32,000 nucleotides of DNA from assembly GCA_003056265.1 (NCBI GenBank), contig NBVN01000002.1, forward strand, positions 510,001 through 542,000. Direction: 5' to 3'. Of the stretch, positions 24,557 through 26,871 are shown piece after piece. The translations under genes were made by a program, and so were the position numbers. The notes under the pieces are model-generated. The model ran no database searches. It saw nothing but the letters and a program-made list of their open reading frames with translations, and was not told the origin of the DNA. Position 1 is the stretch's first letter. Each line of letters begins with the position of its first letter. The stretch is from Zestosphaera tikiterensis. GTDB taxonomy: Archaea > Thermoproteota > Thermoprotei_A > Sulfolobales > NBVN01.

Positions 24557-25132
24557 ATGAACACGAAAAAAGCATTAGGTATAAGCGCCCTAACACTGTT
24601 AGTGTTAGTTCTAGGAGCAGCACTAGCTATGTGGAGTGAAACGCTAAAAGTAAACGTAAAAGTAGAAACAGGCGAAGTAAAGGTTAAATGGTCTGACTGG
24701 TCCTGCAGCGACACAGGCCCAGATCCTCAGGCAGAAGGATACAATAACAAAGAAGGTAAAGACGTAGCCAGTTGCGGCATTGAAATAGAAGTAAAGGACA
24801 ACGAAGGCAATCCGATAAAGTTGCTCGTTACTCTAAAGAACGCATACCCCGGATATAGCGTTGATATAACCTTAACCGTTGATAACATCGGTACAATACC
24901 AGTAAAACTCTACGACCATAAAATAAATGCTAATAAAACAGTCTTATCAGCTCTGTCTATAGATCTGCCAATACCTGAAGATACGCAGATAGATCCTGAT
25001 GGCAGCAGCACCTATACATTACATATTACGGTACTGCAAAGCGCTGCAGAATCAAGCACATACACGTTTGAAATTGAGTTAACGTTCGCTCAATGGAATG
25101 AAGTACCAACTACAACAACCACCGCAGCTTAA
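24557..25132 (+). CDS. Secreted TasA/camelysin-like protein with a SipW-type signal region (paralogue 1); candidate fibre subunit
   Basis: The signal region is MNTKKALGISALTLLVLVLGAALA, followed by MWSETLKVNVKVETGEV. This compares with the bacterial/archaeal SipW-cognate pattern A-x-F-S-D-T-E...N....G-T. An internal LKNAYPGYSVDITLTVDNIGTIPVKL is present. The C-terminus is YTFEIELTFAQWNEVPTTTTTAA. The track ORF starts at 24524. Confidence 0.65.
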   Translation: MNTKKALGISALTLLVLVLGAALAMWSETLKVNVKVETGEVKVKWSDWSCSDTGPDPQAEGYNNKEGKDVASCGIEIEVKDNEGNPIKLLVTLKNAYPGYSVDITLTVDNIGTIPVKLYDHKINANKTVLSALSIDLPIPEDTQIDPDGSSTYTLHITVLQSAAESSTYTFEIELTFAQWNEVPTTTTTAA

Positions 25133-25151
25133 GCAACTATAGGTGGTGTTA

Positions 25152-25832
25152 ATGAATTCCAAGACTTTAAAGGCTTTCGCTGGCGTTGCGTTGCTTTTGA
25201 TAGTTAGCGTAGGCGTTGCTATGTGGTCTGAAACATTACGAGTTAACGTAGCTGTAGCAACCGGCGAAGTAGATTGGGAAATCGTTCCAGGCCCGACAAC
25301 ATGGCTTGACGCTTGTGGTCTTCTACCAGGTTATGGTAACTACAGAGGAAACGATTGGAACGCATCCTACTTGCCGAAGCCGGGAGCAAAACAGCTTGAT
25401 AAGGACGTTGGCTGTACTGACGTAACTTTAATAGATAGCGATGGAGATGGAGATTACGACACTATGAATGTAACGCTTTATAACGTCTATCCATGGTATT
25501 ACACGCATATAGCGTTTAAAGTTCATAATGACGGTAGCGTACCTATAAAGATATGGAGGGTAGTTATCGACGGTCAGGAGTTTCACAAGTTAAATGAGCA
25601 AGAGTTAAAAGAGGGGTTATATTTAGATCTTACAGGCGATGAAAAATTTGACATATTGATATGGTGGGGAGATAACTTCGGTGTTCAATTACACCCATGC
25701 GAAAGCGCTGACGTGAGCTTTGATATAACTGTGCTTCAAGGCGCTCCGCAGGGCTCGACTTTAACGTTCACTATAAGTTTAGAAGCTATTCAATGGAATG
25801 AATACTCTACTCCAACCACTACTATAACTTAA
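25152..25832 (+). CDS. Secreted TasA/camelysin-like protein (paralogue 2)
   Basis: The N-terminus is MNSKTLKAFAGVALLLIVSVGVA | MWSETLRVNVAVATGEV. Internal LYNVYPWYYTHIAFKVHNDGSVPIKIW is present. The C-terminus is LTFTISLEAIQWNEYSTPTTTIT. An AGGTGGTG SD-like element lies just upstream of the ATG. The track start is the GTG at 25143. Confidence 0.65.
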   Translation: MNSKTLKAFAGVALLLIVSVGVAMWSETLRVNVAVATGEVDWEIVPGPTTWLDACGLLPGYGNYRGNDWNASYLPKPGAKQLDKDVGCTDVTLIDSDGDGDYDTMNVTLYNVYPWYYTHIAFKVHNDGSVPIKIWRVVIDGQEFHKLNEQELKEGLYLDLTGDEKFDILIWWGDNFGVQLHPCESADVSFDITVLQGAPQGSTLTFTISLEAIQWNEYSTPTTTIT

Positions 25833-25920
25833 GGTGAGGAATCACGTGTTGGGCGGTTAGATAAGATTAAATTCTTTTTGAGAGGAAATGTATTTTAAAT
25901 CATTGAGGTGGTGTAAAAAC

Positions 25921-26871
25921 ATGGTTGAATCCGCGGTTTCGGCGTCGATGTTTTTAATTTTAGTTATGCTTTCACTTTCTTCCGGTTTAGCCTTACTTTC
26001 TGAAAGGCTTGAAGTTAATGTTAGTGTTGAGACCGGCTTTACAGAGCTTTCTTTTGTTTCTGCTGACTGTCACTACTGTTCGTGTAGGGCTTCATGTCAA
26101 GCTAACGTGGTTAACGGTGGTGATGAAGTTCAAGTTTCTTTAAATAACGTATACTTCTCTTTTAAAGCTTTTGTTTATATGAAGTTAAGAAATACTGGAA
26201 CCATACCCGTTAAGGTTTTTGGGATTTACTTAAATGACTTGCTTATAGAGCCTTATAAGCTATATAAAATCGACTTAAATAACGACGGTTTTAAAGATGT
26301 TGAGGTAGTTTTAATTGATGGCATGCCCTTTAAATGTGATTATATGGGTTTAGACGATGAAGTAAGTGATGAAGGTAGTTTAAATGAGTTAAACACTACC
26401 TACGTTAACGAAAGCTTAAATGTCACGACAGCTAAAGAAGATTTAAAGAAGGATAGGGGTCCCACACCACCTACGGTAACTGACGTTGAAGTTAACGGTT
26501 GTTACGTTACGTTGCGATGGACTGAAGTCGAGGGCAGCGATTTATACCACGTTACTTGGGAGTACGACAGCGTGGTTGTCTGGGGTTCGCCTAAAGGTAC
26601 TCCACCACCTACTTCAGTAACTGTAGGTCCTTTACCTACGGGGTATTACTGCTTTAGAGTTAGTGCTCAAAACTTAGGTCGTGATGGGTGGCGTACTAAA
26701 TGGTCTTCACCGACTTGTGTTTTCGTGTCGTGCTTCCCTCAACCTAAGGTTATTCAGTTAGAACCCGGTGAATCTAAAACGTATTACTTAATAGTACATG
26801 CTCTAAATAGAGGTGATTATGAATTCGTAGTTAAACCGGCTTACGTTAGGTGGAATGAGTATAGGGGTTAA
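25921..26871 (+). CDS. Secreted TasA-like protein (paralogue 3) carrying a Cys cluster, an acidic glycosylation-sequon-rich insert and an FN3-like domain
   Basis: The signal region is MVESAVSASMFLILVMLSLSSGLA | LLSERLEVNVSVETG. Further elements are CHYCSCRASC, LNNVYFSFKAFVYMKLRNTGTIPVKVF, and an FN3-like PPTVTDVEVNGCYVTLRWTEVEGSDLYHVTWEY...LPTGYYCFRVSAQN. The C-terminus is YEFVVKPAYVRWNEYRG. GAGGTGGTG lies 7 nt upstream of the ATG at 25921. The track start is 25888. Confidence 0.6.
   Translation: MVESAVSASMFLILVMLSLSSGLALLSERLEVNVSVETGFTELSFVSADCHYCSCRASCQANVVNGGDEVQVSLNNVYFSFKAFVYMKLRNTGTIPVKVFGIYLNDLLIEPYKLYKIDLNNDGFKDVEVVLIDGMPFKCDYMGLDDEVSDEGSLNELNTTYVNESLNVTTAKEDLKKDRGPTPPTVTDVEVNGCYVTLRWTEVEGSDLYHVTWEYDSVVVWGSPKGTPPPTSVTVGPLPTGYYCFRVSAQNLGRDGWRTKWSSPTCVFVSCFPQPKVIQLEPGESKTYYLIVHALNRGDYEFVVKPAYVRWNEYRG

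Follow-up and report, generated by a model that had tools for sequence, protein, structure and literature searches.

An abpX-type gene cluster in Zestosphaera tikiterensis: three paralogous putative fibre subunits and their conserved sequence blocks

The 32,000-nucleotide stretch of the Zestosphaera tikiterensis genome considered here (contig NBVN01000002.1, positions 510,001 to 542,000 of the forward strand; in the following, the window) carries a compact gene cluster, in which genes for three paralogous proteins, P1, P2 and P3, are followed by genes for a signal peptidase I and a DUF5305-type protein. We consider it very probable that this region is an abpX-type operon for an extracellular fibre of the TasA superfamily, which, by analogy with characterised relatives, would assemble by chaperone-free donor-strand complementation. 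The abpX-type fibre system as such is already described (2025-2026). AbpX, whose name goes back to the cannulae paper, is a biomatrix protein of the TasA superfamily, which polymerises without chaperones by donor-strand complementation with Ca2+ coordination (bioRxiv 10.64898/2026.01.04.697558, a preprint of January 2026; the AbpX literature also comprises Nat Commun 2025, PMC12518558). On this reading a cluster, whose orthologues are named hypothetical or uncharacterised in public databases, would represent a complete abpX-type biofilm-fibre module, and a structural role can be proposed for each of its conserved sequence blocks.

Gene layout and family membership

The genes of the cluster, together with the adjoining regulator gene and the putative promoter element, are as follows.

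24514-24524, forward strand: TATA-box-like TTTAATATATA, about 35 nucleotides upstream of the P1 ATG at 24557
24557-25132, forward strand: P1, predicted AbpX-type major fibre subunit (precursor of 191 residues, 167 mature)
25143-25832, forward strand: P2, predicted AbpX-like minor subunit (probable true start ATG 25152)
25888-26871, forward strand: P3, lineage-specific divergent paralogue (327 residues, or 316 from ATG 25921)
26855-28120, forward strand: multi-pass signal peptidase I (421 residues; TIGR02228 match)
28110-29204, forward strand: DUF5305-type putative signal peptidase accessory protein (364 residues; syntenic orthologues)
29206-29829, reverse strand: winged-helix (HTH_45 / Sso10a-like) regulator, convergent to the operon

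The genes for P1 to P3, the signal peptidase and the DUF5305-type protein are co-oriented and tightly packed with stops overlapping starts, the P3 stop, for example, overlapping the start of the signal peptidase gene. The P1 start at 24557 is also the start in the protein database (P0001, 191 residues) and is favoured over an alternative ATG at 24524, which we rejected because the TATA-like box overlaps it. The longest reading frame of P2 begins with GTG 25143, but ATG 25152, which is preceded by a Shine-Dalgarno-like GGTGGTG and opens a product reading MNSKTLK..., parallel to the MNTKKALG of P1, is more likely to be used. For P3 the database start is ATG 25921, and only from ATG 25888 does the signal peptide possess a positively charged n-region. 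Opposite-strand open reading frames of 50-97 residues in the region lie inside conserved coding frames and were treated as spurious.

The first-pass annotation of the window had proposed three paralogous reading frames with three shared blocks, and all of its reading frames and quoted peptides are indeed present at their coordinates. P1 and P2 are 33% identical (BLASTP, E 7e-28), while P1 and P3 match by BLAST in an N-terminal part (E 3e-07) and a C-terminal part (E 4e-05). A broad family profile, built from P1 and 123 unselected representatives (clustered at 50% identity) with P2 and P3 left out, recognised in the six-frame translation of the window P1 (6e-66), P2 (1.3e-65) and P3 (2.2e-22) and no other match; aligned directly to P3 it gave a probability of 98.3% (hhalign, E 1.7e-14). 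An alignment of the three proteins alone by MAFFT is led astray at the P3 C-terminus by an insertion some 170 residues long, whereas BLAST and the larger alignment place its RWNE motif correctly.

On sequence comparison P1 to P3 are assigned to the AbpX family of the TasA superfamily. Searched singly against the PDB, P1 finds the cryo-electron microscopy fibril of AbpX from Pyrodictium abyssi (9SJ2; phmmer, E 2.3e-07, 34 bits for the single sequence), and the same entry is found at E 6.3e-13 with a profile of P1 orthologues and at E 5.8e-19 with the broad profile, the self-complemented AbpX crystal 9RHP being matched in the PDB sequence search as well. The broad profile aligns with the full P. 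abyssi AbpX precursor at a probability of 99.4% (hhalign, E 6.8e-22). The AbpX-like family amounts to 3390 clusters at 50% identity (E<=1e-3). The orthologues of P1, which are 42-83% identical, belong to metagenome-assembled genomes labelled Desulfurococcales, Desulfurococcaceae, Ignisphaera, Zestosphaera, Pyrodictiaceae, Acidilobaceae and Sulfolobales, and Chloroflexota and Bacillota contain more remote homologues. Mature P1, P2 and P3 have isoelectric points of 4.37, 4.20 and 4.78 with 15.0%, 14.8% and 13.0% Asp+Glu respectively, an acidic composition in agreement with the description of the family (low isoelectric point of about 4, about 15% Asp+Glu). Mature P1 is modelled as an all-beta monomer (AlphaFold2, mean predicted local distance difference test score, pLDDT, 85.7).

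In Pfam and NCBIfam scans no family model covers any of the three proteins, and the weak CARDB and Cohesin Pfam matches of P1 were judged to be fold-level noise. The model of the SipW-dependent signal peptide, TIGR04088, reaches E 0.18 with P1 (12 bits, cutoff 19) and is matched by 13/123 relatives at E<=0.01. The archaeal fibre protein AbpA (7UEG) is not among the PDB profile matches, either at E<=10 with the orthologue profile or at E<=1 with the broad profile.

Conserved blocks and C-terminal tails

The blocks, the loops close to them and the tails lie at the following positions, the family positions (W2, N86, Q155 and so on) being numbered as in mature P1.

24557-24628, forward strand: P1 signal peptide, predicted cleavage A-L-A / M-W-S-E
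24629-24679, forward strand: P1 block 1, putative N-terminal donor strand MWSETLKVNVKVETGEV
24794-24814, forward strand: P1 acidic loop KDNEGNP, candidate Ca2+ site, aligned with the AbpX Ca2+ loop
24833-24910, forward strand: P1 block 2, core strand pair LKNAYPGYSVDITLTVDNIGTIPVKL
25067-25102, forward strand: P1 block 3, last beta-strand and Q-W-N-E (FEIELTFAQWNE)
25103-25129, forward strand: P1 tail VPTTTTTAA, not conserved
25221-25271, forward strand: P2 block 1
25434-25460, forward strand: P2 loop DSDGDGDYD, candidate Ca2+ site at the position of the AbpX Ca2+ loop
25476-25556, forward strand: P2 block 2
25767-25802, forward strand: P2 block 3
25803-25829, forward strand: P2 tail YSTPTTTIT, variable in orthologues
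25993-26040, forward strand: P3 block 1
26140-26220, forward strand: P3 block 2
26824-26859, forward strand: P3 block 3, followed only by YRG

All three blocks, whose lack of conservation in homologues had been named earlier as a refuting observation, are kept in 120 close orthologues, in the 123 diverse representatives and in bacterial homologues from Chloroflexota and Bacillota.

By analogy with AbpX, block 1 would combine the signal peptidase cleavage site with the N-terminal donor strand. The leader of P1 contains a single hydrophobic segment (residues 7-25), and the family cleavage junction is A|x-W, with A at -1 in 105/123 and W at +2 in all 123 representatives, which matches the mature N-terminus of AbpX, Q1-W2. 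In the AbpX fibril, as solved by cryo-electron microscopy, strand W2-I12 is donated into the next subunit, whose groove buries W2, L6, L8, A10 and I12, with W2 acting as a clamp, while E4 coordinates the second Ca2+ (bioRxiv 10.64898/2026.01.04.697558). The P1 strand MWSETLKVNVKVETGEV aligns with the AbpX donor strand QWSETLSLSATISTG without gaps and residue by residue (M1-W2-S3-E4-T5-L6-K7-V8-N9-V10-K11-V12-E13-T14-G15 against Q-W-S-E-T-L-S-L-S-A-T-I-S-T-G), the pattern common to P1, P2 and AbpX being an aromatic residue at position 2, an acidic one at 4 and hydrophobic ones at 6, 8, 10 and 12; P1 and P2 share M-W-S-E-T-L-x-V-N-V-x-V. Among the representatives W2 is invariant (123/123), T14 and G15 are nearly so (118/123 and 117/123) and position 4 is acidic in 89/123. 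The corresponding pattern in TasA is A28-F29-N30-D31, as verified against the sequence of 8AUR. In the AlphaFold2 monomer of mature P1 residues 1-17 are disordered, with a pLDDT of 40 for the donor segment, in parallel with what is reported for AbpX monomers. The donor strands of P1 and P2 are identical at 13/17 positions, as against 33% identity overall, which is consistent with cross-complementation of the two proteins into mixed fibres; mixed fibres are also predicted for Zestosphaera proteins (bioRxiv 10.64898/2026.01.04.697558).

Block 2 would form the structural core of the beta-sandwich (N-A-Y-P-x-Y...N-x-G-T-x-P). Its consensus is N71-A-Y73-P74-x-Y76 ... N86-x-G88-[TS]-[IV]-P91-[VLI]-K, in which N71, Y73, P74, Y76, N86, G88 and P91 are near-invariant (Y73 in 122, P74 in 122, N86 in 112, G88 in 123 and P91 in 121 of the representatives). 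The P1 block aligns with EKAYPGAEVNVTFTLENVGTIPA of AbpX and, weakly but colinearly, with SNLKPGDKLTKDFQFENNGSLAIK of TasA; the earlier comparison with the x-N-x-G-[ST] block of TasA-family proteins is thus borne out, the block being colinear with FENNGSLAIK of TasA, if with weak statistics. Just upstream of block 2 lie the acidic loops, which align with D46-S-D48-Q-G-N-E52 of AbpX. The orthologues of P1 mostly read DDEGD at this point, and most of 30 P2-type loop sequences from related loci contain D[ST]DGDGD, two being without it. The Ca2+ cluster of AbpX consists of D18, D46, D48, E52 and E142 together with E4 of the neighbouring subunit (bioRxiv 10.64898/2026.01.04.697558). By alignment E4 is present in the window proteins, P2 has D18, and E141 of P1 falls near E141/E142 of AbpX.

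Block 3 lies within the last strand of the P1 model, which spans 13 residues (143-155), and ends in the Q-W-N-E motif. Among the representatives Q155 is found in 117/123, an aromatic residue at 156 in 123/123 (W in 108), N157 in 121/123 and E158 in 95/123, and QWNE is present in 119/120 close P1 orthologues. The segment LQSAAESSTYTFEIELTFAQWNEVPT aligns with VQNKYQGNSIKLQFSFEATQWNGLTI of TasA, which comprises strand beta9 and QWNG, at a probability of 80.8% (hhalign, E 1.3e-05), and blocks 2 and 3 are colinear with TasA in hmmsearch (E 0.025 to 0.18); a narrow orthologue profile, which had yielded a probability of 2.8% against TasA in hhalign, was too shallow and was replaced by that of the 123 representatives. 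Q-aromatic-N-E is accordingly as conserved as the donor-strand Trp in more than a hundred diverse representatives and is common to bacterial TasA, a modest addition to the literature consulted.

What is known of relatives places the last strand next to the donor. Solid-state nuclear magnetic resonance (NMR) of TasA shows D31-S41 of protomer n antiparallel to A230-N220 (beta9) of protomer n+1, with W233 in cation-pi contact with H256 and residues 236-238 paired with beta3 of the next protomer. In the AbpA structure the donor strand likewise runs beside the last jelly-roll strand, in the BIDG sheet, and in the sc-AbpX design the C-terminus is linked to the donor strand by only four glycines. If the TasA register is transferred to P1 (i+j=157), the pairs W2/Q155, E4/F153, L6/L151, V8/I149, V10/F147 and V12/Y145 would fall on one face, with K7/E150 and N9/E148 opposite, such that polar residues would meet polar and hydrophobic residues hydrophobic ones. 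The earlier suggestion of a first strand donated to a neighbour, whose acceptor groove is lined by its last strand, gains support from the AbpX cryo-electron microscopy and the TasA NMR, that is, from homologues.

Beyond Q-W-N-E, the Thr-rich tails of P1 and P2 had been read as possible O-glycosylation or anchoring tags. The tails are present, but they are not a conserved feature, and that they are functional tags required for the fibre appears improbable. After FAQWNE, P1-type proteins extend by a median of 3 residues (range 1-11) with the dipeptide TT in 0/57, most of them terminating QWNEV or QWNEVP and the closest relative (83% identity) in VSTTPA; P3 has no tail at all. The proposal fares better with the P2-type orthologues, which usually carry a short Pro/Thr/Ser-rich tail of 3-18 residues after WNEY (P 21%, T 18% and S 15% being the three commonest residues, TT in 10/39), yet even among these neither length nor sequence is conserved. 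Since no hydrophobic, transmembrane or sorting segment follows the tails of P1 or P2, anchoring by them is unlikely, and we rejected them as sorting or anchor signals; O-glycosylation is possible. In TasA neighbouring subunits are contacted by residues 236-238, just behind QWNG, and by the C-terminal tail, and, by analogy, the few residues after Q-W-N-E may touch the next subunit.

The third paralogue and the accessory genes

P3 retains those N, G, P, K, Q, W, N and E residues of the core and the last strand that are invariant in the family. It differs from P1 and P2 in having Leu for W2, in its nine cysteines and in the insertion of about 170 residues, which is placed between block 2 and the last two strands.

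26383-26430, forward strand: sequon-rich disordered linker of P3 (NTT, NES, NVT), at the start of the insertion (26383-26733)
26461-26733, forward strand: FN3-like domain of P3 (AlphaFold2 model, Foldseek)

In the AlphaFold2 model residues 117-154 have a pLDDT <50 and are followed by a domain of seven to eight strands. Foldseek matches this domain to FN3 modules with a probability of 1.0, TM-scores of 0.5-0.67 and E of about 1e-2, the region being modelled at pLDDT values of about 52-76 (10-residue means); one such match is 2e3v_B (TM-score 0.67, root-mean-square deviation 3.5 A). The Pfam fn3 model finds no match in P3.

No homologue other than P3 itself was found among 5.8 billion proteins, and in 69 related loci, drawn from species-representative genomes, we found no P3 orthologue but only cross-matches to orthologues of P1 and P2. 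A comparison can be made with a Zestosphaera sp. locus (L070, compared at 7577-9569), where the genes for the major and minor subunits, signal peptidase I, the DUF5305 protein and a convergent HTH_45 regulator follow in the order of the window and no third paralogue is present: nothing lies between minor subunit and signal peptidase, where the window has P3. From these absences we conclude that P3 is a lineage-specific gain or was lost elsewhere.

Other loci possess a third gene of their own at this position. Its products, about 440-470 residues long, combine an AbpX-like N-terminal domain, which in some cases has a W2 donor strand, with additional residues at the C-terminus; other representatives, taken from the database and 360-460 residues long, continue for 190-300 residues after Q-W-N-E. 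These third-gene proteins are probably the variable tip proteins of the preprint. The Zestosphaera locus of the preprint includes a tip protein, A0A2R7Y9R0. The third genes occur at L009 1718-3112, L010 2756-4150, L016 9299-10705 and L053 8555-9874; their core reads N-x-G-[ST]-[IV]-P-V-x-G-P, and a donor strand of the type LWGEALIINSVVETG could be recognised in L009 and L053 but not in L010 or L016. The accessory subunit is highly plastic: Zestosphaera L070 lacks it, other lineages have it as a C-terminal fusion, and in the window it is an orphan, the FN3-like insertion being internal.

Is P3 simply a duplicate in decay without a role in the fibre? It has no homologue outside its own genome, it has lost the invariant W2, and the otherwise identical Zestosphaera locus does without it. 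We nevertheless think this quite unlikely, as the reading frame is intact over 327 codons with its stop overlapping the start of the next gene, the family-invariant positions are retained, the signal peptide has the same cleavage context and the insertion is predicted to fold as an FN3-like domain. P3 is more probably a capping or adhesive accessory subunit, which would accept a donor strand and display a domain but donate poorly; the groove and last strand are kept, the Trp clamp is lost, and a potentially N-glycosylatable linker with an FN3-like domain is inserted. The FN3-like domain, being inside the jelly-roll and not after Q-W-N-E, where the accessory or tip proteins of other lineages have their extra domains, would be displayed sideways from the fibre. 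Going further, we put forward, tentatively and as a pair that is rather less than even money, that P3 represents an undescribed TasA-superfamily architecture, an adhesive chain-capper, and, separately, that Q-[W/Y/F]-N-E is the ancestral site, across the superfamily, at which the incoming donor strand docks with its first residues.

Of the accessory proteins, the 421-residue signal peptidase matches the archaeal signal peptidase I model TIGR02228 above its cutoff (E 1.6e-21), the SipW model below cutoff (2e-14), and also Peptidase_S24 and S26. Some 7-9 hydrophobic segments flank the catalytic domain, and the archaeal/SipW-type signal peptidase I domain is C-terminal, which matches the signal peptidase I with ten transmembrane segments described for abpX loci; the gene is syntenic in at least 60 loci. 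The 364-residue protein is predicted to have two transmembrane segments (residues 19-37 and 249-267), an ectodomain and a cytoplasmic tail. All of its six tested syntenic orthologues match DUF5305 (PF17231; 38.7-52.3 bits, cutoff 29); it is 20-39% identical to these orthologues (tblastn), and the window copy appears unusually divergent. The convergent regulator matches PF14947 (E 6.7e-13) and NF053610 (8.3e-13).

The gene order P1, P2, a variable third gene, signal peptidase I and DUF5305 recurs across the 69 loci. P1 orthologues lead the cluster in 62 archaeal loci, and in nearly all archaeal loci P2 orthologues (34-73% identity) lie directly downstream of those of P1. The typical archaeal abpX locus, for which Zestosphaera serves as the example, has been described as consisting of a major pilin, an AbpX-like minor subunit, a variable tip protein, a ten-transmembrane signal peptidase I, DUF5305 and sometimes a transcription factor (bioRxiv 10.64898/2026.01.04.697558), and the window locus matches this description.

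In several close relatives a second, small signal peptidase (S24/S26 type) is encoded on the opposite strand, about 2 kb upstream of the gene for the major subunit (L001 4774-4950, L002, L003, L007, L011, L012; L070 4611-5003, 130 residues).

Fibre assembly and comparison with known systems

Homology, block conservation, synteny and predicted monomer folds were obtained on the window proteins themselves, and on this basis the following course of assembly can be envisaged. Each precursor would be exported by Sec and cleaved behind a small residue (A|x-W), the likeliest enzyme being the multi-pass signal peptidase I of the operon, acting together with the DUF5305 protein. The cleavage would expose block 1 as an amphipathic strand, with W2, L6, V8, V10 and V12 on one side and E4 interrupting the hydrophobic face. 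This strand would leave its own subunit and enter the open groove of the next one, antiparallel to the block 3 of that subunit, W2 clamping the register at the mouth of the groove beside the Q-W-N-E of the acceptor. E4 and the acidic loop (KDNEGN in P1, DSDGDGD in P2) may then bind Ca2+ at the interface. P1 would be the major subunit and P2 a minor one, co-polymerising with P1 through its near-identical donor strand. Fibres of this kind, which are thermostable, Ca2+-triggered and chaperone-free, are under study as hydrogel biomaterials, for which P1, P2 and P3 would be ready-made test cases.

Several observations weigh against this picture or parts of it. It was on homologues that donor-strand exchange, the Ca2+ sites and the pairing of beta0 with beta9 were established, and these would extend to P1 to P3 by analogy, our own models being of monomers. 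The solved P. abyssi AbpX ends ...VEVDVEQNVS, without Q-W-N-E, so that the structural role of the motif leans on TasA and on inference. P1 has K18 where AbpX has the Ca2+ ligand D18, and P3 has Leu in place of the otherwise invariant W2, although its E4 is kept. The connection with TasA is statistically weak for the window sequences (PDB profile E 0.025), and P1 to P3 stay below the threshold of PF12389 (Peptidase_M73), with no match at E<=1; 2/30 orthologues match that model (best E 0.14), as do 7/123 representatives at E<=0.01 (best 3e-4), among which it is still the commonest family match. When the P1 model was compared with the PDB by Foldseek, only beta-sandwiches of a generic kind were retrieved (best E 3e-3), among them adaptin ear domains, CBM3 and WSSV VP28, with AbpX and TasA absent; the open, uncomplemented groove of the model, or a library without those entries, may account for this. 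Finally, the 364-residue protein itself has no Pfam match (E<=0.1), which is why its assignment to DUF5305 relies on syntenic orthologues.

Some of these points would also suit secreted beta-sandwich proteins that do not polymerise, for instance camelysin-like proteases or carbohydrate-binding or S-layer-associated adhesins, in which the blocks would reflect no more than a common fold. The generic Foldseek matches, CBM3 among them, and the weak CARDB and Cohesin matches, the only ones of P1 in Pfam, would fit such proteins. But the match to AbpX is specific, significant and to a protein solved as a donor-strand fibril, an invariant and disordered N-terminal amphipathic strand has no role in a monomeric domain, the metalloprotease motif HExxH is absent from P1 to P3, and the genes are linked to a dedicated signal peptidase; we therefore regard this possibility as very unlikely. 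That P1 to P3 are type IV pilin-like, with a class III signal peptide, a prepilin peptidase to remove it and a hydrophobic N-terminus kept as the core helix of the filament, is hardly tenable, for although the UpsA pilin model has weak matches in 7/123 relatives and archaeal flagellin is matched by one, probably on account of their hydrophobic N-terminus, there is no canonical K/R-G/A cleavage motif ahead of the hydrophobic stretch, the conserved A|x-W junction comes after it, the adjoining gene encodes signal peptidase I and not a prepilin peptidase, and recombinant AbpX starting at Q1-W2 (plus one initiator Met) reproduces the ex vivo fibril spacing.

The donor-strand fibre favoured here can be set against the known systems, of which P. 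abyssi AbpX is the nearest to be solved. It shares with the window proteins the x-W-S-E-T-L donor strand, the A-Y-P-G...N-x-G-T-I-P core, the acidic composition, an acidic loop at the position of the Ca2+ site and an adjacent signal peptidase I gene. Unlike P1 it has no Q-W-N-E (ending VEQNVS) and a 54-residue leader, and the kinship is only distant; its locus is a minimal one of two genes, to which the window adds a minor subunit, P3 and DUF5305, with a regulator adjoining. The Zestosphaera abpX locus has major subunits 65-67% identical to P1, and its order in L070 is, apart from P3, that of the window.

The TasA-TapA-SipW system of Bacillus subtilis (8AUR, 5OF1) has in common with the window the N-x-G-[ST] core, a last strand followed by Q-W-N, a donor strand that pairs with the last strand (for the window, by analogy) and a SipW-type peptidase in the operon. 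TasA is, however, the larger protein, containing helical insertions and ending in a C-terminal tail of 27 residues, and the match is weak (E 0.025). Its nucleator TapA, an Ig domain without a groove, has no detectable counterpart in the window, and SipW possesses far fewer transmembrane segments than the window peptidase. AbpA/AbpB of the bundling pilus of Pyrobaculum calidifontis (7UEG) are likewise archaeal jelly-roll subunits of the TasA superfamily, but their operon contains different accessory genes and no dedicated signal peptidase. The haloarchaeal Tat-fimbriae (TafE) provide a further TasA-superfamily donor-strand fibre from loci with DUF5305 and a signal peptidase; they differ in Tat-dependent export, in the subunit family and in their hosts, halophilic Methanobacteriota as against hyperthermophilic Thermoproteota. 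In the chaperone-usher (type 1 / P) pili of Gram-negative bacteria the principle is the same, an N-terminal strand completing the incomplete beta-sandwich of a neighbour, yet the window has no chaperone or usher genes and no sequence relationship is detectable, the assembly of AbpX being chaperone-free and Ca2+-assisted.

Directly upstream of the fibre operon lies an archaemetzincin gene (23932-24435, forward strand; NF033823, E 1.1e-42), and L026, L031, L044 and L047 likewise have an archaemetzincin gene at a distance of a few kb from the P1 orthologue. In the window the archaemetzincin gene is preceded by a gene (22000-23871, forward strand) for a 623-residue fusion of a nucleotidyltransferase with a CDP-alcohol phosphatidyltransferase, which resembles bifunctional IPCT/DIPPS (NF041135, E 5e-63, below cutoff) and continues for about 180 further residues at the C-terminus, in which several hydrophobic segments lie. 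IPCT/DIPPS is an enzyme of di-myo-inositol-phosphate synthesis, a type consistent with a hyperthermophile. Just upstream of this gene is a tRNA-Leu(CAG) gene (21871-21961, forward strand).

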